Assembly: GCF_003018255.1 (NCBI RefSeq)
Contig: NZ_CP027440.1
DNA from: Escherichia coli
GTDB taxonomy: Bacteria > Pseudomonadota > Gammaproteobacteria > Enterobacterales > Enterobacteriaceae
Length of the DNA: 64,000 nt
Reading direction: 5' to 3' (one strand)
The position numbers and the translations under genes were made by a program. Positions 12,930-61,337 of the stretch are shown in pieces (the first letter of the stretch is position 1; each line of letters opens with the position of its first letter). The notes below the pieces were generated by a model. It saw only the letters and a program-made list of their open reading frames with translations. It searched no databases and was not told where the DNA came from.

Positions 12930-13018
12930 CTGTAGGCCGGATAAGGTGCTTGCACCGCATCCGGCATCAACGTCTGCACATTGTCGGATGCGACGCCGGG
13001 GCGTCTTATCCGACCTAC
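12930..13018. repeat. REP pair between phnE and phnD
   Basis: tgtaggccggataaggtg...cggatgcgacgccggggcgtcttatccgacctac palindromic units. Confidence 0.7.
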
Positions 13019-15427: not shown

Positions 15428-15492
15428 GATGGTGACCTCAGTTAAGAGAAGCCCGTTAAGTGTAGTTCGAAATTTATACAGATGAGAGGGAA

Positions 15493-15571
<79 letters not shown>

Positions 15572-21193: not shown

Positions 21194-21304
21194 GCTGAAA
21201 CGGATGGCCTGATGTGACGCTGTCTTATCAGGCCAATTGAACTCTTAAGGTTCACTTAATCTCTGACGCGCATACTCTCCTCCAGGTTAACGGAGGAGAG
21301 TGCA

Positions 21305-21394
21305 ATGAAAAACCGTGTTTATGAAAGTTTAACTACCGTGTTCAGCGTGCTGGTGGTCAGCAGCTTTCTTTATATCTGGTTTGCCACGTTCTGA
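21305..21394 (+). CDS. pmrR: 29-aa membrane peptide PmrR, convergent with and overlapping the basS 3' end
   Basis: atg at 21305 to tga at 21392-21394 encodes MKNRVYESLTTVFSVLVVSSFLYIWFATF; not in ORF track because shorter than 60 aa. Confidence 0.7.
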   Translation: MKNRVYESLTTVFSVLVVSSFLYIWFATF

Positions 21395-22470
21395 TCTTTC
21401 TTCAGCCGTACCCAGGCCCGCGTGCCGGAAGTCTCTTGCCGGTTTTGCAGGAAAAACTGCCCGTGATGCAACTGTGTAATGCGGCTGACAATACTTAACC
21501 CCAGACCAATCCCGCCATAACGGCTGTCCATACGTACAAACGCTTTACTCAACTCCCCGCATTTACTCTCATCAATACCCGGTCCTTCATCTTCAACGGC
21601 CATGACCGCTCCGCCATCTTCTTGCAGCTTAATCATAATGTTGCTGCCTTGCGGGCTGTAACGATGGGCGTTTTCTACCAGGTTTCGCAATAACATCCGC
21701 AGCAGGGTTGCATCACCCTGAACGGTGATGTCGGCGGCGCTCTCTGGCAATAGCAGGTTTTGCTGTCGCTGGTCGAGCATGGTACTGAGTTCGTCATACG
21801 AGGGGAGAATGACATCTTCCAGCAGTTTTACATGTTGATAATTACCGGAAGAAAATGACTGTCCGGCACGCGCCAGTTGCAGCAGCTGGGAGACACTCTC
21901 CATCATCTGATCAAGTCGAGCCACTAACGGTGCTACATCAATGTGATGCGTTTTCGCCAGCAGTTCCAGATGCAAACGCACCCCCGCCAGTGGCGTTCGC
22001 AGTTCGTGCGCGACGTCAGCGGTAAACAACCTTTCGTTATCCAGCGTGCTGGTCAGGCGACTGACCAGATCGTTCAACGCCGAAACCACCGCTTCGATTT
22101 CGAGGGTGGCGCTGTGAATGGCAATAGGCGTTAAGTTGTCGGCGGTGCGCGCTTCCAGCTCTTTTTGCAGCTCCGCCAGCGGCCGGGTGATGCGGCGTAC
22201 CGCCTGATAGCAGATAAATAGCGTCAGGCTGACCATAAAGACGCCGGGGACGATCAGGCTGGCGACCGCCTCGCGGATCTCACGCATGATGTGGCGATCG
22301 TTGTTGCGATTGTCGCGTAGCGCCTGCTCAAACAGCTGAATCTGCTCGGTACTTTCATGCCATAGCCAGAAGACGCTGATCAGCTCAAACACCAACAAAA
22401 TGGCCCCAATGGTCAATATCAGCCGTTGGCGCAGCGATATTGGTCGGCGCAGAAAACGCATCAGATTCAA
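21370..22470 (-). CDS. basS: sensor histidine kinase BasS/PmrB
   Basis: 366-aa ORF with H-box HELRTPL and ATPase domain; upstream of basR. Confidence 0.9.
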   Translation of the reverse strand: MNLMRFLRRPISLRQRLILTIGAILLVFELISVFWLWHESTEQIQLFEQALRDNRNNDRHIMREIREAVASLIVPGVFMVSLTLFICYQAVRRITRPLAELQKELEARTADNLTPIAIHSATLEIEAVVSALNDLVSRLTSTLDNERLFTADVAHELRTPLAGVRLHLELLAKTHHIDVAPLVARLDQMMESVSQLLQLARAGQSFSSGNYQHVKLLEDVILPSYDELSTMLDQRQQNLLLPESAADITVQGDATLLRMLLRNLVENAHRYSPQGSNIMIKLQEDGGAVMAVEDEGPGIDESKCGELSKAFVRMDSRYGGIGLGLSIVSRITQLHHGQFFLQNRQETSGTRAWVRLKKDQNVANQI

Positions 22471-31111: not shown

Positions 31112-32164
31112 ATGATGTCTGCACCCAAAATTACATTTATCGGCGCTGGTTCGACGATTTTCGTTAAAAATATTCTTGGTGATGTGTTCCATCGCGAGGC
31201 GCTGAAAACGGCGCATATTGCCCTGATGGACATTGATCCCACCCGCCTGGAAGAGTCGCATATTGTGGTGCGCAAGCTGATGGATTCAGCAGGGGCCAGC
31301 GGCAAAATCACCTGCCACACCCAACAGAAAGAAGCCTTACAGGATGCCGATTTTGTCGTGGTGGCATTTCAGATTGGCGGTTATGAACCTTGCACGGTGA
31401 CTGATTTCGAGGTCTGTAAGCGGCATGGTCTGGAACAAACCATTGCCGATACGTTGGGGCCGGGCGGTATTATGCGCGCGCTACGTACCATTCCGCATCT
31501 GTGGCAAATTTGCGAGGACATGACGGAAGTCTGCCCCGATGCCACCATGCTCAACTACGTTAACCCAATGGCGATGAATACCTGGGCGATGTATGCCCGC
31601 TATCCGCATATCAAACAGGTAGGGCTGTGCCATTCGGTGCAGGGAACGGCGGAAGAGCTGGCGCGTGACCTCAATATCGACCCGGCTACGCTGCGTTACC
31701 GTTGCGCAGGTATCAACCATATGGCGTTTTACCTGGAACTGGAGCGCAAAACCGCCGACGGCAGTTACGTGAATCTCTACCCGGAACTGCTGGCGGTTTA
31801 TGAAGCAGGGCAGGCACCGAAGCCGAATATTCATGGCAATACTCGCTGCCAGAATATTGTGCGCTACGAAATGTTCAAAAAGCTGGGCTACTTCGTCACG
31901 GAATCGTCAGAACATTTTGCTGAGTACACGCCGTGGTTTATTAAGCCAGGTCGTGAGGATTTGATTGAGCGTTATAAAGTACCGCTGGATGAGTACCCGA
32001 AACGCTGCGTCGAGCAGCTGGCGAACTGGCATAAAGAGCTGGAGGAGTATAAGAACGCCTCCCGGATTGATATTAAACCGTCACGGGAATATGCCAGCAC
32101 AATCATGAACGCTATCTGGACTGGCGAGCCGAGTGTGATTTACGGCAACGTCCGTAACGTATAG
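31112..32164 (+). pseudogene. melA: alpha-galactosidase, 5' fragment (about 349 codons) truncated by prophage insertion
   Basis: GH4 N-terminus MMSAPKITFIGAGS; the frame ends ...IYGNVRNV* exactly where prophage-end sequence begins; full-length MelA is recalled as about 451 aa. Confidence 0.8.
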
Positions 32165-52534: not shown

Positions 52535-53008
52535 TTAAGGCGTTTCTGTGGCCTTTTTAAAGCGTTTTCTGATTTCGTCCATGATCTCCTGCTCTGCCAC
52601 CTGATCAAAGCCCATATACGGACGTGCACCAATGGCCGCCGGTCCCGGCGGCATACCTGGCAGGCCACCCCACTGATGAATGGCCGCATAAGGCTCATTT
52701 GATCCAATCAGCGCCCAGGTGTCGCCATAATCCGTGGTCAGGCGTCGGGCCAGATCGCCGTTCAGCGTCAGGATTTTGCCGGGCATGTATCCCTTACGGG
52801 TACGCCACTTGCGGTAAGGATCTGACCAGTCATGCCAGCGTTCGCCGTCCGGCTCTTTTTCCTGTTCAAACGCCATTTCTGACGATGACAGAAGGCTGGA
52901 CGCCACACTGCGGGCCAGGTCTTTTCCGCCACCCACAAACTGAAGCCGGGCAAAGACCCGCTGGAGACGCGTAACGTCAACAACGACGGCGGCATCAATG
53001 GATGACAT
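52535..53008 (-). CDS. virion morphogenesis protein (Mu G-like)
   Basis: 157-aa ORF between F-like and I-like genes. Confidence 0.6.
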   Translation of the reverse strand: MSSIDAAVVVDVTRLQRVFARLQFVGGGKDLARSVASSLLSSSEMAFEQEKEPDGERWHDWSDPYRKWRTRKGYMPGKILTLNGDLARRLTTDYGDTWALIGSNEPYAAIHQWGGLPGMPPGPAAIGARPYMGFDQVAEQEIMDEIRKRFKKATETP

Positions 53009-53129
53009 ATTGCCTCCGTATAAAATATGAATATAAAATAAGCAGGCGGTCAGTGTACGCTTAACTGGTAAAGTCGGTGCCTGCCTCCGGGTGGATCATG
53101 TATGCGGGTTCGACCCCCGCCACTGACCG

Positions 53130-54461
53130 TTAATCAATATCTCCTTCCAGTACCTCAAGCATTCCGCCCCGGATATCCGATTTCAGCTTATCCATATTGA
53201 TAACCCGGTAAGCATTAACAATCACATCCAGTTTATCCGGCTGACGCTTCAGGCTGTACGGTGCATTAACGGCAATCTGCACACTGCCATCCTGATTTTC
53301 CACGATATACATCAGATTGTTGTGCCGTTTGTCCCACAGTACCGCTTTTGGCCTTGCCAGCATTGCCGGTAAGCGCCCGAAATCCTCCGGTGTCAGGGCG
53401 ATACCGTCATTCTGATGTTTCATGCTGTCCGCATGGAGCACATTTTTACCGCTCATCGCCAGCAGGCGGGCCGGTGGCGTTCCCGTCCGGCTTTCCACCG
53501 CCTGCGCAATGCTTTCGGTCATAAAGCCCAGCGTGCGGATATCGTTACCGCCTCGCCGGGTTTTCATGATGTTTTTTGCCCAGATGCGGAACGCCAGCTG
53601 CCGCTCCGGGCTGTTGTTCATCTCCTGAACCACCATTTCCCGTAACGCCGGGCTTTTCACCTCGATCAACTTGCGGAGCAGCGCCTGGTCTGTGCCGAAC
53701 GCCGCCGAACCGGGGTTATATGACCAGCCCACATCCGGTGTCATGGTTCTGGTGCCATCTGAATATGTGGTCACCGGCATTTCTCTGACTTCTCCGGTCT
53801 GCTTATCCACGCCAGCCTCAACATTGCGGGTGGAAAGATGATCCTGACCGGATGAAACGGATAACCCCATTGCATCCAGACGGGTCTGAGACAATGGCCG
53901 GACACGGCAGCGGCAGTTCCAGCCATTGGGTGGGTAGTGTGTATTCCAGAACGGATCGTCATAGCGGAATACCAGACCGTTAAGGGCGGAATGCGCCGGG
54001 CGGGTGCGGCTGTCCATCACCGCCACATACTGCCAGAACGGATGCGTGTCCGTGTTGTTCATCATCTGCGTGTAACGCCCGGCATTGTAAGCCACGCGGG
54101 TGTTCACGTTGTAAATCAGCGCCAGACGGCGGGGACAGCCCAGCTGCACTTCTTCTGCGTTACCGGCGCTGTCCACCACAATCTGCTTTCCCCACCATCC
54201 CAGCTTTTGCAGGCGGGGGGTCAGTGTGCGGATAAATGCTTTCTGTGAAATCCCCTCATCAATGGCCCGTTGCACTTCCGCCTGTAGTGTGGTCAGTACG
54301 TCCAGGCGTGCCACTTTTGCCGCCGTGAACGAACGGGCATGAACATCCGCGTCTGTTTCGAACCAGTTCCAGCTGATATGCGCCCCTTTGGCGCGGAAGT
54401 ATGCCACCGCCTCTTTTGAGGGAAGCGTGGCGGCATAACCTAAATCAATCCCCTGTGCCAT
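53130..54461 (-). CDS. head morphogenesis protein (Mu F-like)
   Basis: 443-aa ORF downstream of portal. Confidence 0.65.
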   Translation of the reverse strand: MAQGIDLGYAATLPSKEAVAYFRAKGAHISWNWFETDADVHARSFTAAKVARLDVLTTLQAEVQRAIDEGISQKAFIRTLTPRLQKLGWWGKQIVVDSAGNAEEVQLGCPRRLALIYNVNTRVAYNAGRYTQMMNNTDTHPFWQYVAVMDSRTRPAHSALNGLVFRYDDPFWNTHYPPNGWNCRCRVRPLSQTRLDAMGLSVSSGQDHLSTRNVEAGVDKQTGEVREMPVTTYSDGTRTMTPDVGWSYNPGSAAFGTDQALLRKLIEVKSPALREMVVQEMNNSPERQLAFRIWAKNIMKTRRGGNDIRTLGFMTESIAQAVESRTGTPPARLLAMSGKNVLHADSMKHQNDGIALTPEDFGRLPAMLARPKAVLWDKRHNNLMYIVENQDGSVQIAVNAPYSLKRQPDKLDVIVNAYRVINMDKLKSDIRGGMLEVLEGDID

Positions 54462-56043
54462 CCAGCATCCCCTTCATTTCCGCAGCAAACATGGCATCAC
54501 TGAGCAGCGTCATCAGGCGGGAATCATCCATTTCACGGTAAAGGGCAGGCAGGTCTGCCAGTGCCTCCGCCAGCCCCCGCGTTCTGATGGCATCAATGAC
54601 CGGCTCCAGTACCGGGTCGATGGCCTCCTGTAACCGGCGGGCAGGCACCGCATCCCCCATGTCGTCCAGTTCATCTCGGGGGCTGCTTTTCGCTTCCGGC
54701 AGTCTGGCAGCCAGCGCTGTCTGCTCTGTCTTCTCCTGTTTTTCCGGTGGCATCTCTTTGTCTGTCTGAGCAGGTTCATTGCCACTCTGACGGACACGGA
54801 AGATGGCTTCACCGGGGGCAGGCTGTGGAATACCGGTCTGCTCCCGTACCCAGGGATCAGGAATATCCATCCCCGTACTGAGCTGCATCACCGCACTGGT
54901 GATTTTGGTGATATCCCCCGGCTCTTTTGTCTGGAAACAGATACGCGGCAGGCGACGGATATCAATGGCGTGGGCGGTGTTCAGGGCATACAGCGGATAC
55001 ACCAGATCGCGGTTCAGCGTGGCGGCCAGCTGACGTAAATCAGAATCCCTGATTTCCCGGCGCACCTCGTTATGCACTTCACCCAGCGAACGTGCGCCCT
55101 TGTCTCCGGCTTCCGTGGTCAGCGTGCCGCCGAGGATAGCTTTGGAGATGGAACGCTCCCCCCACGAAATCATGGTTTCAAACGGATCGGCCTGACCGTT
55201 CGCTGCCGCCTGAAACTCCAGCGACATCCCGGCCGGGATGATCCCGCCTGTACGTCGCCCGATATCCATCACCGCCCGCATCAGGGCGCTTTTCTGCTCC
55301 GGTGTTGCCCCGGAGGGGTATTTACCGACCTTCATCGGCAGGCCGTACACCTCCAGAAATTCAGCCAGATCGCGCACGGAATAGTTTTTGAAAATGAACG
55401 GCCAGATAAGCGTTCTGACAAGCCCCGTCGCACCACCGTAGCCGGTGCGTGAACGTGACTGATGCACTATCCAGCCAAAGGGCTGAAACGCCACCCCGGC
55501 ATGGCTGCCGTCACGCAGCCGCAGTTCGCTCAAATCATCCGGGTTAAGGCAGAAATGCCCGCTGTCACGCCAGCGGATGGCGCGGATGATGTGCATTTTA
55601 CCGAGCATCCCGTGCTCAATCTCCATGCAGGAATAGCCTTTCAGGATGGCATCGGTGGCATCAAACAGCATGGCATCAAACCAGTCGGCGGAATGCAGAT
55701 ATTCGTCGAGCATTTCCGCGTCCTTTTTCTCATTCGCGCTGGCGTTCGGGGGCGGCTCAATACTCCAGGGCACGCCCTGAATGGCAAGACGTCGCTTGCC
55801 CAGCTCTGCAAAAAGGTGGGTATCCTTTTCTTCAATGTCAGCGGCCAGATCGGACTGGGCAATCAGATCGCCACGTTCAGCCCCGCGAAGGCACTGTGCC
55901 GCCCGGTTCGGGGTGATACCCGAGGCCGGATGTTCAATATAACGGCTGGCAATCTGCGGAATATCCAGCGCGGCGCTCTGCATCTCCGGGTCAAAGGAGA
56001 AAGGTTTTCCGTCAAGATCAATTATACGTCCCACTACCAGCAC
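54445..56043 (-). CDS. portal protein (Mu gp29-like)
   Basis: 532-aa ORF directly downstream of terminase large subunit. Confidence 0.7.
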   Translation of the reverse strand: MLVVGRIIDLDGKPFSFDPEMQSAALDIPQIASRYIEHPASGITPNRAAQCLRGAERGDLIAQSDLAADIEEKDTHLFAELGKRRLAIQGVPWSIEPPPNASANEKKDAEMLDEYLHSADWFDAMLFDATDAILKGYSCMEIEHGMLGKMHIIRAIRWRDSGHFCLNPDDLSELRLRDGSHAGVAFQPFGWIVHQSRSRTGYGGATGLVRTLIWPFIFKNYSVRDLAEFLEVYGLPMKVGKYPSGATPEQKSALMRAVMDIGRRTGGIIPAGMSLEFQAAANGQADPFETMISWGERSISKAILGGTLTTEAGDKGARSLGEVHNEVRREIRDSDLRQLAATLNRDLVYPLYALNTAHAIDIRRLPRICFQTKEPGDITKITSAVMQLSTGMDIPDPWVREQTGIPQPAPGEAIFRVRQSGNEPAQTDKEMPPEKQEKTEQTALAARLPEAKSSPRDELDDMGDAVPARRLQEAIDPVLEPVIDAIRTRGLAEALADLPALYREMDDSRLMTLLSDAMFAAEMKGMLDGTGD

Positions 56044-57698
56044 CCCCGATCAAATTCATGATATGCCTCATCGTCATCACGATAACCGCCCTCCATGGCC
56101 CGCGACCGCTCCGGCAGCGCCTGACAGGCTGATTCATCCAGGATGAAGCCCTCCATGTATGACGCCCGGTTTGCCATACAGAGCGCCACGGCAAAATCGC
56201 CATGGCGGCGGGCGTTCACAGCCGTTGCGTTCTGGTCCTTCGTACGCCCCTTGTCAATTTGCGGGATACCGTTCACCACCTTCACATGGCGCAAATCATC
56301 AAGCGTGGTCTGATGGCGGGCGACGAGGATATTCTGATCCTCAAACTCGGCCTTCAGTTTTGGCATCCACTCGCCGTACCACTTCGGCGATAACATCACG
56401 CAGTCGATGATGTCCGGGCCAAAGGCCAGCAGCGCGGCTTCGGCCAGATAGCCGCCGTTACCGGTGGCGTCGAACGCCGCACCGACCAGCGCCGGAACGC
56501 GGGTCAGGATGTACATCATCACCTGCTCCTGCTGGGCATACGGCAGGTTGCGCAGCTCCACGCGAAACACCTCGCGTTTTGCCAGGGATTCAGTGATTTC
56601 CAGCAGCACAAAGCAGGAGAGGTCACCGATGCGGGCAAAGTCTTCCCCGAAGCTGAAGCGGGAACGGGGATTTAACGCCTCTAAAAGCGGTTTTAAATGT
56701 TCTTCACACCAGGTTAAAACCTCCGATTCACGCAGCCATGCGGCACGGCTGATGAAGTCGTCCGGGGCTTCAAACGTCAGAATCGGGATGTCGCGGAGCA
56801 TCGCCATTTCAATAAGCGCGTGAGGAATATAGGCACCGCCGGATTTTTTCGGGATACAGCCGTATTCCTCGTCGGCATCCTCACGGGTCGGGGCGTTTTT
56901 GTAGAGATCATCACGCCACTTCTGCTCGCTTTCCGGTGACCATTCGCGGCCGGTGACATAACAGATACGACGGTACAGCCCGTCCGCAATGGCATCATCC
57001 AGGGTAATGCGGTGGACGCTGTAATCCTTGCGCCCCTCGCGGGCTTCCTGAATGTACTGATTAAACAGATTATCGACGCCGTTATGCGTGGAGATAATAC
57101 GCACGCGCGCGCCCCACATGGTGAGCGCCATTGCCGCCTTGAGAAGCTCATCCAGTGACTCGTGGAACGCGGCTTCATCAATCACCACATCCCCCTGAAG
57201 GCCGCGCAGGTTTGACGGACGGGAAGACAGTGCCTGAATTTTGAATCCACTGTTCGGAAAGCGGATCATGTAGGTCAGAATTTCTTCTTTTTTATCCCGA
57301 TCCCAGAAGGTCTGCTCATACACATCAGCATCTGCCAGCTGGTTAAAGGCACGGGAGAACAGTGCGCAGGCAGAAATATATTCCAGCGCCATCTCCTGCT
57401 TTGACCCCACATAAAACACATTGCGGCCACCACGCCGCTTAGGCTTTGCGGCGGTAATGACGTTACGCCCGGCTTCCGCCCAGGTAAGCCCGGTGCGGCG
57501 GGATTTTTCCGCGATGCAGACCTCGCTTTCATCCTCAAACCAGCGGGCCTGATAATCCAGAAATACCGGCATATCACCGGGCAAATCAAGGCTGTCCGGC
57601 ACATCCACGCCCAGCAGGGCTTTTTCACCGGCCAGATCAATTTTGCGGGTGGAGACGGTATTCGTCAGTAAGGGGGAGAGTTCTTCGGCGTTATTCAT
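56034..57698 (-). CDS. terminase large subunit (Mu gp28-like)
   Basis: 554-aa ORF; size and position upstream of portal. Confidence 0.75.
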   Translation of the reverse strand: MNNAEELSPLLTNTVSTRKIDLAGEKALLGVDVPDSLDLPGDMPVFLDYQARWFEDESEVCIAEKSRRTGLTWAEAGRNVITAAKPKRRGGRNVFYVGSKQEMALEYISACALFSRAFNQLADADVYEQTFWDRDKKEEILTYMIRFPNSGFKIQALSSRPSNLRGLQGDVVIDEAAFHESLDELLKAAMALTMWGARVRIISTHNGVDNLFNQYIQEAREGRKDYSVHRITLDDAIADGLYRRICYVTGREWSPESEQKWRDDLYKNAPTREDADEEYGCIPKKSGGAYIPHALIEMAMLRDIPILTFEAPDDFISRAAWLRESEVLTWCEEHLKPLLEALNPRSRFSFGEDFARIGDLSCFVLLEITESLAKREVFRVELRNLPYAQQEQVMMYILTRVPALVGAAFDATGNGGYLAEAALLAFGPDIIDCVMLSPKWYGEWMPKLKAEFEDQNILVARHQTTLDDLRHVKVVNGIPQIDKGRTKDQNATAVNARRHGDFAVALCMANRASYMEGFILDESACQALPERSRAMEGGYRDDDEAYHEFDRGCW

Positions 57699-58279
57699 CA
57701 GGCTTTACCCAACAGAATCCCCTTAATACGGGACTCAAGCTGTTCACTCATCCCGTCCACGCCGCGCAGCTCGTCGGTGACGGCGTTTGCCATCTCTTCA
57801 GCAAATGCAGCCCGGATTTCTTTTTCACGCTTAATGCTGCGCTCGGCGGCACTTTCCGCACGCTGTGCTGACAGGAGGATGTCCTTAATAAGACGCATAT
57901 CCACGTCGCTGTCACTGTTCAGGGATTCGGTCGCGGCACGCAGACGGCGGTACATCAGGGCGCGGGACATCTCCAGAATCAGCGCTGTGGTTTCACCGGT
58001 TGGCTTGTCTCCCAGTTCGGCCATCATGGCTTTTGTCTGCTCGCGTAAATCACGCAGGTTACGGGCAATCAGCTCATTACGGGAGGCTTCCCGGCTGATG
58101 GCCGCCGGTGAAAGCTGCTGCTCTTCCGGCAGGCCCGCCTCACGGATCAGACGGTTGATTTCCTCGCGTATCTGGACCTGCGTCAGACGTTTTTCACGCA
58201 GCATTTCCAGCAGTGGCTTACGGATGCTGTCGGGGAGCAAATCCACCTTGCGCACGCGTCCACGCGTCGGCTTGTCCAT
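57698..58279 (-). CDS. terminase small subunit-like / DNA-binding protein (Mu gp27-like)
   Basis: 193-aa charged helical ORF immediately upstream of the large terminase. Confidence 0.5.
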   Translation of the reverse strand: MDKPTRGRVRKVDLLPDSIRKPLLEMLREKRLTQVQIREEINRLIREAGLPEEQQLSPAAISREASRNELIARNLRDLREQTKAMMAELGDKPTGETTALILEMSRALMYRRLRAATESLNSDSDVDMRLIKDILLSAQRAESAAERSIKREKEIRAAFAEEMANAVTDELRGVDGMSEQLESRIKGILLGKA

Positions 58280-58281
58280 CG

Positions 58282-58572
58282 TTACCCCCTTGCGCGTGGT
58301 TTCTTCACACCCGGAACGCTGGCGCGACCTTCCGCCACATCCTGACCCCGGCCGGTCAGTTCGGCGATGAAATAACCGTTAACGAGCGTGCGCTTACGCA
58401 CCAGTCCCTGCTCGGCAAGCCAGGCAATGTGGGTGTGAACGGTGTCGCGGGACACGCGGTGGCCGTAATCATCCAGACAGTCCTGGAGCACGGATTCACC
58501 CAGTTCACCGTTGTAATCTGCCAGCGACCGCAGAATGACCAGACGCTGATCTTCAGTAATGAAATCACTCAT
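58282..58572 (-). CDS. hypothetical protein (Mu gp26-like)
   Basis: 96-aa ORF. Confidence 0.4.
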   Translation of the reverse strand: MSDFITEDQRLVILRSLADYNGELGESVLQDCLDDYGHRVSRDTVHTHIAWLAEQGLVRKRTLVNGYFIAELTGRGQDVAEGRASVPGVKKPRARG

Positions 58573-58877
58573 TGCGTTTTTTTCCTTACAGCCTGCTCCA
58601 GCAGCAGTTCGTTCTGATAGGAGACAGAGCGGAGCGTGGCGTTCGTGGTTTTCAGTTCACCCCGCAGGGTCACGATTTCCACATTCAGACGGTTGACCTC
58701 GGCTTCTGTCGGCAGTGACGACAGGCGGGTTTCCACCTTCTCAACGCGGTCGGAGAGTTTTTCAAAGGCCTCGCGGGGGACAAACGTTTTGCGCATCAGC
58801 GCCATGAATATCCCGCCAGCGGTTGCCGTCGCCGAAAGGATCGGCACAACATAATCTTTAACGATGCTGACCCACAT
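58569..58877 (-). CDS. membrane protein with one TM helix and coiled coil; candidate endolysin-release (releasin-like) lysis factor
   Basis: 102-aa ORF, N-terminal hydrophobic segment ILSATATAGGIFMALM, sits in the lysis-proximal block. Confidence 0.35.
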   Translation of the reverse strand: MWVSIVKDYVVPILSATATAGGIFMALMRKTFVPREAFEKLSDRVEKVETRLSSLPTEAEVNRLNVEIVTLRGELKTTNATLRSVSYQNELLLEQAVRKKTQ

Positions 58878-59085
58878 GACGGGCCTCCATGATGTTCTGG
58901 CAGTTCACACAACGGATGGCATCCGGCACAGCAACAAGACGTGCGGCGGGGATCTCTCCGCCACAGTCCGCGCAGACACGTCTGCCCGGAGCATCCATTG
59001 CCCGGCGCTTACGTGTCAGCCGGTTACAAAGGGCGCGTTCTGATCCCCGCTCCATCACAGCCTGAGCACGATCTGAATCATCCAT
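58858..59085 (-). CDS. TraR/DksA-family C4 zinc-finger protein
   Basis: CADCGGEIPAARLVAVPDAIRCVNC motif (CxxC-17-CxxC); start taken at MDDSDRAQ. Confidence 0.6.
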   Translation of the reverse strand: MDDSDRAQAVMERGSERALCNRLTRKRRAMDAPGRRVCADCGGEIPAARLVAVPDAIRCVNCQNIMEARHVGQHR

Positions 59086-59095
59086 ACCTTTTTCC

Positions 59096-59467
59096 TTACT
59101 TCGTCTTTCCTGCCGGAACAGCAGGCGTTCCGGCCATATCAGTAAATTCATGTTGTCGCCGCGCCTCCAGACGACGAATACTGGCCTTGTCCACGTTGCA
59201 GTTCTTGATCACCGCCAGCAGTTGCAGGTTGTAAGTGACCGATGCCCCAAACGTGAACGGCTCCGGCGCAGGAGGGACCAGGCAGTCAGCCAGCCATTCA
59301 GCGGGGATCGGCACCGGCTTCACAGGCACGTATTTCACAGACGGCCCGGCGCACCCGATCAGCCACATCATCAGGAACAGGGGCAGAGGCCGCAGGCACT
59401 GCCGCCAGCGACCGGCGGACAACGCTCTGCTGCCCCTCGCTGTGCTGAATGTTCTGTTGTTTTTCAT
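59096..59467 (-). CDS. o-spanin (Rz1-like) lipoprotein, out of frame within and beyond the Rz-like gene
   Basis: Lipobox LIGC followed by a proline-rich mature region; read from the alternative frame of ORF 59096..59662. Confidence 0.5.
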   Translation of the reverse strand: MKNNRTFSTARGSRALSAGRWRQCLRPLPLFLMMWLIGCAGPSVKYVPVKPVPIPAEWLADCLVPPAPEPFTFGASVTYNLQLLAVIKNCNVDKASIRRLEARRQHEFTDMAGTPAVPAGKTK

Positions 59468-59648
59468 TCGTGGCCGCCTCACTGATTTGTGAAATGAGTT
59501 GCAGGGTGTGCTGCTGATTTGCCAGCACCTGACGCGCCTCATCCCGCTCACGCACAAGCACCTGATTATTGTCTTCAAGGCGCTGCGTCTTCTGGTGCAT
59601 TCCCCATATAGCGGCAACCAGTACAGCGATAATCCCCAGCGCCGCCAT
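59298..59648 (-). CDS. i-spanin (Rz-like), start uncertain
   Basis: N-terminal TM helix then charged coiled coil; ORF track 59298..59819 overlaps lys, so an internal start was chosen. Confidence 0.5.
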   Translation of the reverse strand: MAALGIIAVLVAAIWGMHQKTQRLEDNNQVLVRERDEARQVLANQQHTLQLISQISEAATNEKQQNIQHSEGQQSVVRRSLAAVPAASAPVPDDVADRVRRAVCEIRACEAGADPR

Positions 59649-59760
59649 GCACGCCCCGGCAATCAGGGCCGGTAAGGCATTATTCACCGCAGCCACAGGA
59701 CACCCCGTAACAGCAGTACCGCACACAGCAGCGCTATCATGAGCGGTCGCCAGAAGCGGT

Positions 59761-60332: not shown

Positions 60333-60758
60333 TCAGAAAAGTGGCGGTTGCGTTCTTGCCAGATGCAGACGGCGCTGTTCGCGTATGACGGTATAAATCT
60401 GGGTTTCTGACATCCGGTAATGGCGGCGAAGGGATTCAATTTTCTCGCCCCGGTCCCAGCGCGAAAATATCTCATTGTTTCGCAGCTCGGCAAAGAGAGA
60501 TTCCCCGACCGGCAGGTAATAACCCCGTCCGCCCATATAGGCTGCCTGAGCCGCAGCCACCTTGCGTGCCAGTTTACCGGCCAGTACCGGCTCAATCCCC
60601 TGACGCTGAAGTTCTGCGCCGGTGACTTCAACCAGTTCTGACAGGGTCCGCGGCCAGTTCTTTTTGAGAACATCATCAGGGATGTCATCAAGGCGGTCGA
60701 TAAGGGCGTGCAGTTGCTCACTGTCACCACCAAACATGCTCATCTGAGTTTCTGCCAT
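60333..60758 (-). CDS. Mor/C-family transcriptional activator
   Basis: C-terminal region GGRGYYLP...IYTVIREQRRL resembles Mu Mor (GGGQVYIP...VYKAIRRMRRL, recalled); immediately upstream of the lysis gene. Confidence 0.65.
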   Translation of the reverse strand: MAETQMSMFGGDSEQLHALIDRLDDIPDDVLKKNWPRTLSELVEVTGAELQRQGIEPVLAGKLARKVAAAQAAYMGGRGYYLPVGESLFAELRNNEIFSRWDRGEKIESLRRHYRMSETQIYTVIREQRRLHLARTQPPLF

Positions 60759-60827
60759 ATCAGCCTCCGGTTCTCGCGTTCCCGGTAAGTTTAAAATAAA
60801 AATCCCGCGTTGTGGCGGGATTTGGAG

Positions 60828-61337
60828 TTAACGGGGAAGTGATTTTTCATACTGCCTGCAAACGGCGTCATACCCCATCAGCGTGCGTTCGGGCATTCCC
60901 ATCGCGGCCAGCATTTTGCGGCGGTGCCATCGCTTGAGACGCTCCAGCACATCTGAGGCCAGGGCGGGGTGTTGCTCCAGCCACTGCCAGTTTGCCACAC
61001 CTTCGCCGCCGTTTTGCGCGGCCGTCTGCGATTTCACCCAGCGGTTAAGGGCGGTTTCCGCACCATCGGTGATAAAGCCCTGCCGGTGCATCACCTTCCA
61101 GATGGCGCGAATTTTGGCGGTCACCGTACCCGGTTTTAAGGCCCGGTTAACCGGGTTCTGACGCACTTTAAAACCGCGTTTTTTGAAAACATCCAGCACG
61201 CGGGATAACTCATCCGGTGACATATCCCGGCAGCTGGTTTTGCCGGTGGCTGCCAGCAGCGCGGATGTATAAGTCTCATCATCCAGGGCAAGCTCGCGCT
61301 TTGCCACATGAATGGCGGATATCAGTTTTCCTCTCAT
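60828..61337 (-). CDS. GemA-like (DUF1018) early regulatory protein
   Basis: 169-aa ORF with N-terminus LISAIHVAKRELALDDETY typical of the family; position before Mor/C as in Mu. Confidence 0.55.
   Translation of the reverse strand: MRGKLISAIHVAKRELALDDETYTSALLAATGKTSCRDMSPDELSRVLDVFKKRGFKVRQNPVNRALKPGTVTAKIRAIWKVMHRQGFITDGAETALNRWVKSQTAAQNGGEGVANWQWLEQHPALASDVLERLKRWHRRKMLAAMGMPERTLMGYDAVCRQYEKSLPR

Follow-up and report, generated by a model that had tools for sequence, protein, structure and literature searches.

TraR of the F plasmid is documented to bind in the secondary channel of RNA polymerase (RNAP), and the same holds for five of its phage homologs, lambda Orf73 among them (PMC9239242, PMC6970531), as the original prediction for the gene described here had stated for phage and plasmid TraR-like proteins. 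The phage homologs tested were lambda Orf73, P2 Orf82, VHML Orf8, VP882 Orf61 and X. bovienii Gp34 (PMC9239242). TraR (73 aa; PDB 5W1S, 6N57/6N58) consists of an N-terminal helix (residues 2-27), a globule (28-57) and a C-terminal helix (58-73), with S2 sitting 4.3 Å from the catalytic Mg2+ (PMC6970531). Its DxxDxA motif approaches the RNAP active site and is critical for the function of both TraR and Orf73, R48 contacts the beta' rim helices (PMC9239242), and the substitution P45A weakens RNAP binding (PMC6970531). Three further residues, E46, R49 and K50, form an interface with beta' Si3 and contribute to activation; alanine at these contacts approximately halves activation of thrABC, with little effect on binding and inhibition (PMC6970531). 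Gopalkrishnan et al. tested six proteins, each of which has the equivalent of R49, and found that Orf73 increases the burst size of lambda (PMC9239242). The residue roles in TraR referred to below are taken from these two studies (PMC6970531, PMC9239242).

In phage Mu, which has no holin, gp25 (DUF2730) is a lysis protein, termed releasin, that frees the SAR endolysin, and it is the basic residues in the SAR segment of gp22 that make it depend on gp25 (PMC9239132). In Burkholderia phage KS10, a dksA/traR finger protein (gp7) encoded between the endolysin and terminase genes was described in 2008 (PMC2628397). No experimental characterisation of the protein described here, or of its homologs in Mu-like phages, was reported in the literature searched.

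The present gene was found in a 64,000 nt stretch of E. coli DNA (the window), and codes for a protein of 75 aa. A TraR/DksA label for this exact protein, its family and the mechanism of that family are already known. The differences from the tested homologs are modest, and consist of a late position within a lysis cassette and the replacement of the Si3 contacts.

The Mu-like prophage and its late gene block

The element carrying the gene is a Mu-like transposable E. coli prophage, which spans from about position 32160 to beyond 64000 of the window. Position ~32160 is its right end, and to the left of it lies core E. coli chromosome (the adiA/adiC, eptA, proP and crfC region). All the phage genes described in this section are on the minus strand. 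GemA (60828-61337) is followed by a Mor/C-family late transcription activator (60333-60758; PF08765, E=2.8e-32) and then by the gene for a phage lysozyme (59761-60261; PF00959, E=8e-37), the first gene of a tightly packed late block. Next are an i-spanin candidate (59298-59726), annotated as 'endopeptidase' in RefSeq and without a Pfam match, and the o-spanin, an Rz1-like LysC protein (59096-59338; PF23793, E=2.5e-13, and RefSeq), the gene for which ends 10 nt before the ATG of the TraR-like gene. On the other side, the next gene codes for a member of DUF2730, the family of the Mu 'releasin' gp25 (58569-58877; PF10805, E=7e-20, and RefSeq), and its start and the TraR-like stop overlap by 20 nt. 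The block continues with a gp26-like gene (58282-58572), a Mu gp27 small-terminase-like gene (57698-58279), the large terminase (56034-57698) and the Mu portal (54445-56043), as given by RefSeq annotation and Pfam, with PF11985 and PF06074 listed for the stretch from gp26 to the portal.

The gene had been predicted to lie between the lysis and packaging genes, and this is borne out, since it follows the lysozyme and spanin genes and precedes those for gp27, terminase and portal. More exactly, it lies inside the lysis cassette, because its downstream neighbor, DUF2730, belongs to the family of Mu gp25, the releasin, which is a lysis protein (PMC9239132). Genes of the late block are separated by gaps of no more than 10 nt or overlap by 4-20 nt, and a terminator scan of the region found no convincing terminator between the lysozyme and terminase genes. 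Since a promoter scan found no sigma-70-like site 5' of either the lysozyme or the TraR-like gene, late expression is something that we infer, from gene order and the Mu paradigm.

Two details of the neighboring genes may be mentioned here. The first residues of the lysozyme are MPKLPAPLRKK, and the Gly/Ala-rich segment after them is weakly hydrophobic, so that this N-terminus looks SAR-like with basic residues. Together with the downstream DUF2730 gene, this would fit a dependence on releasin of the kind described for Mu gp22. Between gemA and lysozyme there is a single activator gene of the Mor/C family, compared to two in Mu (Mor and C), and a terminator-like hairpin (60800-60823) is found directly after gemA; the cascade that regulates middle and late genes is perhaps less complex in this prophage than in Mu.

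The TraR-like gene and its start codon

The CDS for the 75 aa protein occupies 58858-59085 on the minus strand, including the stop, with an ATG at 59085-59083 and a stop codon at 58860-58858, and the inferred protein sequence is MDDSDRAQAVMERGSERALCNRLTRKRRAMDAPGRRVCADCGGEIPAARLVAVPDAIRCVNCQNIMEARHVGQHR. The coordinates given in the original prediction of a small C4 zinc-finger protein of the TraR/DksA type were exact. The CDS is supported by the open reading frame and its translation, by matches to PF01258 and TIGR02419 that exceed the cut-offs (see below), by an identical 228 nt CDS that RefSeq annotates as TraR-like from the same start, and by its dN/dS ratio. A Shine-Dalgarno sequence, AAGGA (59093-59097, minus strand, read from the sequence), lies 7 nt 5' of the ATG, where it shares bases with the o-spanin stop codon, and is kept in all variant loci of the gene.

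An alternative reading of 97 aa from an ATG at 59151 is open in the window and is used by some gene callers; for example, a protein cluster of 337 members has the 97 aa form (58858-59151, minus strand) and NCBI the 75 aa form. The longer form overlaps the o-spanin gene. We reject the 97 aa start on two grounds. In two near-identical variants (L011 and L014), a 1 nt indel in an A-run brings in a stop three codons 5' of the ATG, closing the longer frame and leaving the 75 aa frame intact. In addition, homologs begin at the position of the MDD sequence: in the alignment of 132 homologs (taken from the best-scoring HMMER matches of 60-85 aa), the aligned Asp is residue 2-3 of the protein's own N-terminus in 123. 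An N-terminal extension of 22 residues would also not fit, because S2 of TraR lies so close to the catalytic Mg2+ (PMC6970531). The Shine-Dalgarno sequence, the N-termini of the homologs, the stop in L011/L014 and the RefSeq annotation together show that this is a real gene of 75 residues and that the 75 aa start is the correct one. The indel site in L011/L014 is the A-run between the Shine-Dalgarno sequence and the ATG. The four-cysteine motif, the loss of which on correct start assignment was of concern in the original prediction, is present under both starts.

Three plus-strand ORFs over the gene (58864-59043, 58889-59065 and 58941-59234) have nothing to support them and were set aside as shadow ORFs. 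A terminator-like hairpin within the CDS (58965-58942, minus strand) has a poor T-tract and was attributed to chance; the region contains 7 such hairpin sites, compared to 3.7±2.5 expected.

Family membership

The protein belongs to the TraR family (TIGR02419/PF01258). It matches Pfam PF01258 (zf-dskA_traR) with E=5.4e-12 and 45.9 bits (cut-off 24.9), and NCBIfam TIGR02419 (C4_traR_proteo), the phage/plasmid TraR family, with E=6.8e-22 and 77.8 bits (cut-off 59.7), the latter match spanning residues 2-67 and model positions 1-64 of 64. PHROG 54, a group of DksA-like zinc-finger proteins, was matched at E=9e-20, and all three matches are much too strong to be due to chance. DksA proper can be dismissed as its identity, both by length and by the scores for the DksA equivalog models, which are far under their cut-offs (TIGR02420, 25.5 versus 115.5 bits; NF008045, 23.2 versus 289).

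When the PDB sequences were searched with phmmer, chains of F plasmid TraR were on top (5w1s_M, E=2.3e-5, and 6n57_M), with DksA and YbiI ranking behind, and the similarity to TraR that had been anticipated from profile searches was thus found by both types of method. Residues 2-69 of the 75 aa protein align with TraR 3-68, that is, from end to end, and BLASTP gives 35% identity over 66 residues; DxxDxA, the C4 finger, a C-terminal helix (predicted) and an Arg corresponding to R48, determinants named in the TraR and Orf73 studies (PMC9239242, PMC6970531), are all kept. The proposed alignment with lambda Orf73 held for one part of the protein: BLASTP matched the finger (33% identity over 30 residues) and left the rest unmatched.

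Homologs were sought in several ways. A word-index search with the 75 aa protein returned near-identical E. coli proteins only, and a locus search with this single protein gave almost exclusively E. coli variants. An exhaustive HMMER search, on the other hand, recovered 820 representatives at E≤0.001, and reached distant relatives.

Conserved residues and predicted structure

The DxxDxA motif is encoded at 59065-59082 (minus strand) as D2-D3-S4-D5-R6-A7 and makes up the tip of the N-terminal helix. Both phmmer and BLASTP align D2, D5 and A7 with TraR D3, D6 and A8. Among the 132 homologs, these residues are present in 123 (D2), 123 (D5) and 112 (A7), values that are somewhat inflated by a selection effect, as the ranking of the homologs depended on their similarity to the 75 aa query, which itself bears the motif. 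The zinc finger, C38-x2-C41-x17-C59-x2-C62 (58900-58974, minus strand), is placed by the Pfam match and by the TraR alignment, in which the CxxC-x17-CxxC cysteines line up with the four of TraR; three of them are invariant in the homologs and C62 occurs in 130/132. I45-P46 align with TraR I44-P45, the site of the P45A substitution, R49 corresponds to TraR R48 and is invariant (132/132), and E67 corresponds to TraR E66 (conserved in 119/132).

An AlphaFold2 model built from the 132-homolog alignment has a helix at residues 3-29 (58999-59079, minus strand), a zinc globule, and a helix at residues 60-73 that includes E67 (58867-58908, minus strand). It is a model of moderate confidence, with a mean pLDDT of 74.5 and a TM-score to TraR of about 0.48. 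A Foldseek search of the PDB with this model gave TraR as the best match (6n57_M; TM-score 0.48, probability 1.00), ahead of DksA, DksA2 and YbiI. The predicted structure thus matches the three-element fold of TraR.

The 75 aa protein and F TraR are similar in length, and have in common the N-terminal DxxDxA, the CxxC-x17-CxxC spacing, the I-P pair before the finger helix and the equivalents of R48 and E66. They differ at TraR P43, which is E44 in the 75 aa protein, and in genetic context, since traR is part of a conjugative transfer operon and the present gene is part of a phage late lysis/packaging operon. The five tested phage homologs are likewise short and phage-borne, come from gamma-proteobacterial hosts and possess both DxxDxA and a C4 finger, and the role expected of the 75 aa protein is the same, the reprogramming of host transcription during lytic growth. 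However, the genes for Orf73, Orf82, Orf8 and Orf61 are in early/regulatory regions (PMC9239242), whereas the TraR-like gene is in the late block; the tested homologs also possess the TraR R49 equivalent, which the 75 aa protein lacks. E. coli DksA (151 aa) shares the zinc-finger globule, and binds in the RNAP secondary channel, as predicted for the 75 aa protein, which lacks both the DksA coiled-coil hairpin and the ppGpp site-2 context. Past the finger turn is an R-L pair, which we take to be the counterpart of DksA R125-L126.

Proposed function and the Si3 contacts

We consider the 75 aa protein to be, most probably, a TraR-type RNAP-binding factor carried in the late block of a Mu-like prophage, with promoter inhibition of the kind exerted by TraR and Orf73. 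It would be made together with the coupled late block (lysozyme, spanins, TraR-like protein, releasin, gp26 and terminase), and would bind host RNAP via the secondary channel without contacting DNA. The N-terminal helix would go down the channel, bringing the DxxDxA tip beside the active-site Mg2+, while the zinc globule would rest on the beta' rim helices via R49 and the C-terminal helix would contact the beta lobe/Si1. Promoters for rRNA and ribosomal proteins, which have short-lived open complexes, would as a result be inhibited with no need for ppGpp, as they are by F TraR and Orf73. Polymerase and nucleotides would then be freed for phage late transcription, and phage yield would rise. 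Polymerase binding, promoter effects, late timing and a benefit to the phage are what we infer for this protein by analogy with its characterised relatives.

One departure from TraR is at the Si3 contacts. The phmmer alignment places A47, L50 and V51 at the positions of TraR E46, R49 and K50, and among the 132 homologs position 50 is Leu in 84 and Arg in 25. As alanine at these contacts only halves activation (PMC6970531), they appear to modulate function rather than to define the family. With A47, L50 and V51 in their place, binding and inhibition by the 75 aa protein are therefore expected to be normal, and Si3-dependent activation to be weaker.

The same replacements could be read differently, namely that the protein acts mainly as a competitor that keeps DksA/ppGpp and GreA/GreB out of the secondary channel, and neither inhibits nor activates promoters in the manner of TraR. 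In this way, late transcription would escape host stringent control, or replication and transcription could coexist free of it while the phage transposes replicatively. The presence of the binding determinants alongside the absence of the Si3 activation contacts (PMC6970531) would suit such a role, and other secondary-channel binders, e.g., Rnk, do work by competition (PMC9239242). Nevertheless, mere occupancy of the channel does not need DxxDxA, and the tip that confers inhibition on TraR and Orf73 is intact here; moreover, inhibition by TraR was left nearly intact when its Si3 contacts were changed to alanine (PMC6970531). We therefore regard a purely competitive role as improbable, and favor a protein that binds and inhibits as TraR does.

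The gene 24 position in phage Mu and other Mu-like phages

Phage Mu has, at the corresponding site and flanked by the genes for spanin and gp25, gene 24 (NC_000929, 11524-11718; L002:3025-3219), which codes for a 64 aa 'hypothetical protein' (NP_050628). Mu gp24 shares with the 75 aa protein the CxxC-x17-CxxC spacing and a conserved Pro before the second CxxC. It differs in having ExxNxA in place of DxxDxA and Val at the position equivalent to TraR R48, and in ending four residues past the last Cys, so that the C-terminal helix is absent. Mu gp24 fails to match both PF01258 and TIGR02419. When aligned by hhalign to the homolog alignment from which gp24 had been left out, the probability was 77% (E=2e-5), and the match covered only the finger; a value of 96.8% was set aside as circular, because gp24 was itself a row of that alignment. 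From its sequence, Mu gp24 looks like a degenerate TraR relative, and this slightly weakens the assumption that the gp24 position always encodes an RNAP-competent protein. Gene 24 is not mentioned in the Mu lysis paper (PMC9239132).

The late position in the lysis cassette is conserved in distant Mu-like phages. In Vibrio phage martha 12B12, the TraR-like gene (VPCG_00028) is directly 5' of DUF2730, and is followed by gp27 and terminase. Among the contigs of 8 diverse TraR-like representatives, DUF2730 is immediately downstream in four to five, and Gp27 and/or Portal_Mu genes follow in 5/8, the remaining contigs being too short. On the short metagenomic contigs L030, L035, L036 and L037, the genes downstream of the TraR-like homolog matched no significant Pfam family, DUF2730 included. 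KS10 gp7 and genes at the gp24 position such as that of martha 12B12 resemble the present gene in specifying a C4 finger protein of about 72-76 aa in the interval between endolysin and terminase. They differ in sequence, being 39-54% identical to the 75 aa protein, and the local gene order in KS10 is slightly different, as a gene for a 102 aa protein precedes gp7.

This arrangement raises the question of whether the protein serves lysis or packaging rather than transcription. It could be a zinc-ribbon accessory that, for instance, pairs with the DUF2730 releasin or gp26/gp27 or regulates them, the TraR-like fold being ancestral. The gene is found immediately 5' of DUF2730, and often overlapping it, in the prophage, in Mu, in martha 12B12 and in the four to five metagenomic contexts out of 8; Mu gp24 retains the zinc finger without any of the RNAP-contact motifs; and the lack of a holin in Mu leaves room for an additional control of lysis timing (PMC9239132). 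Set against this, the strongest conservation is at the residues with which TraR contacts RNAP (the N-terminal DxxDxA, R49 and E67), and the 75 aa sequence has no sign of membrane association. The genes of phage late operons are commonly linked this tightly, with no need for their products to be physical partners. Reportedly, gp22 and gp25 supplied from separate plasmids in the Mu lysis study released the SAR endolysin without gene 24, which also argues against such a role; constructs of this kind appear in the legend to Fig. 2 of that study. An accessory function has, in our view, only a small chance of being correct, and binding to RNAP remains the preferred interpretation.

The genes at the gp24 position form a natural set of TraR variants, presumably late, mostly with Leu for the Si3-contacting Arg, and with Mu gp24 as a degenerate extreme. 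They bear on whether secondary-channel factors also act at the end of the phage cycle, and on whether inhibition and activation are naturally uncoupled through the Si3 contacts. One may speculate that Mu-type phages as a group carry a conserved late TraR clade that is translationally coupled to the releasin gene and lacks the Si3-activating contacts, although we think this rather unlikely. If true, the clade could be a dedicated factor for shutting off host RNAP in the late phase, and could also tune Mor/C-dependent late transcription, and hence the timing of lysis, in phages that have no holin clock. The Mu-type TraR would then be a timing device, unlike lambda Orf73 with its early diversion of resources.

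Distribution, variants and selection

Of 5426 complete E. coli genomes, 230 contain DNA identical (100%) to the TraR-like gene, O157:H7 strains being among them, and in these RefSeq names the product 'TraR/DksA family transcriptional regulator' (WP_000342749.1). The same block is found in two records of Stx-converting phages, in which it is labeled 'inserted Bacteriophage Mu-like phage'. The Mu-like element occurs inserted in Stx1a- and Stx2c-converting phages, plus another prophage in strain 2018-166, and such varied insertion sites agree with recent transposition.

Compared to variants that are 83-87% identical, the dN/dS ratio of the gene is 0.17-0.29 (Nei-Gojobori method, from small counts), which indicates purifying selection. 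The possibility that the gene is a decaying passenger without current function is very remote given these values, the intact state of all the motif residues, and the retention of the ORF in the 230 E. coli genomes as well as in distant Mu-like phages. The observations in favor of decay are the degenerate look of Mu gp24 and a frameshift in one of 25 viral-contig variants (L028, 6001-6226), which destroys the second CxxC. The group of variants with 83-87% identity carries the substitution R6C within DxxDxA, giving D-D-S-D-C-A.

Other features of the window

A tRNA-like element (53049-53128) is present on the plus strand, antisense to the phage late genes, in a 121 nt gap between a G-like gene (52535-53008) and a MuF-like gene (53130-54461). 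A local search with the Rfam tRNA model scored the element at 31.0 bits, compared to a gathering score of 29. Its acceptor, D and T arms look good and the anticodon region is oversized; RefSeq annotates the element as 'tRNA-OTHER', and ARAGORN finds nothing. The host flank contains STnc630, an sRNA, together with two REP-type elements of the naRNA4 kind, all at the Rfam gathering score (listed jointly at 21236-21401, plus strand; 12935-13015, plus strand; and 15492-15569, minus strand), all of which are ordinary chromosomal features.
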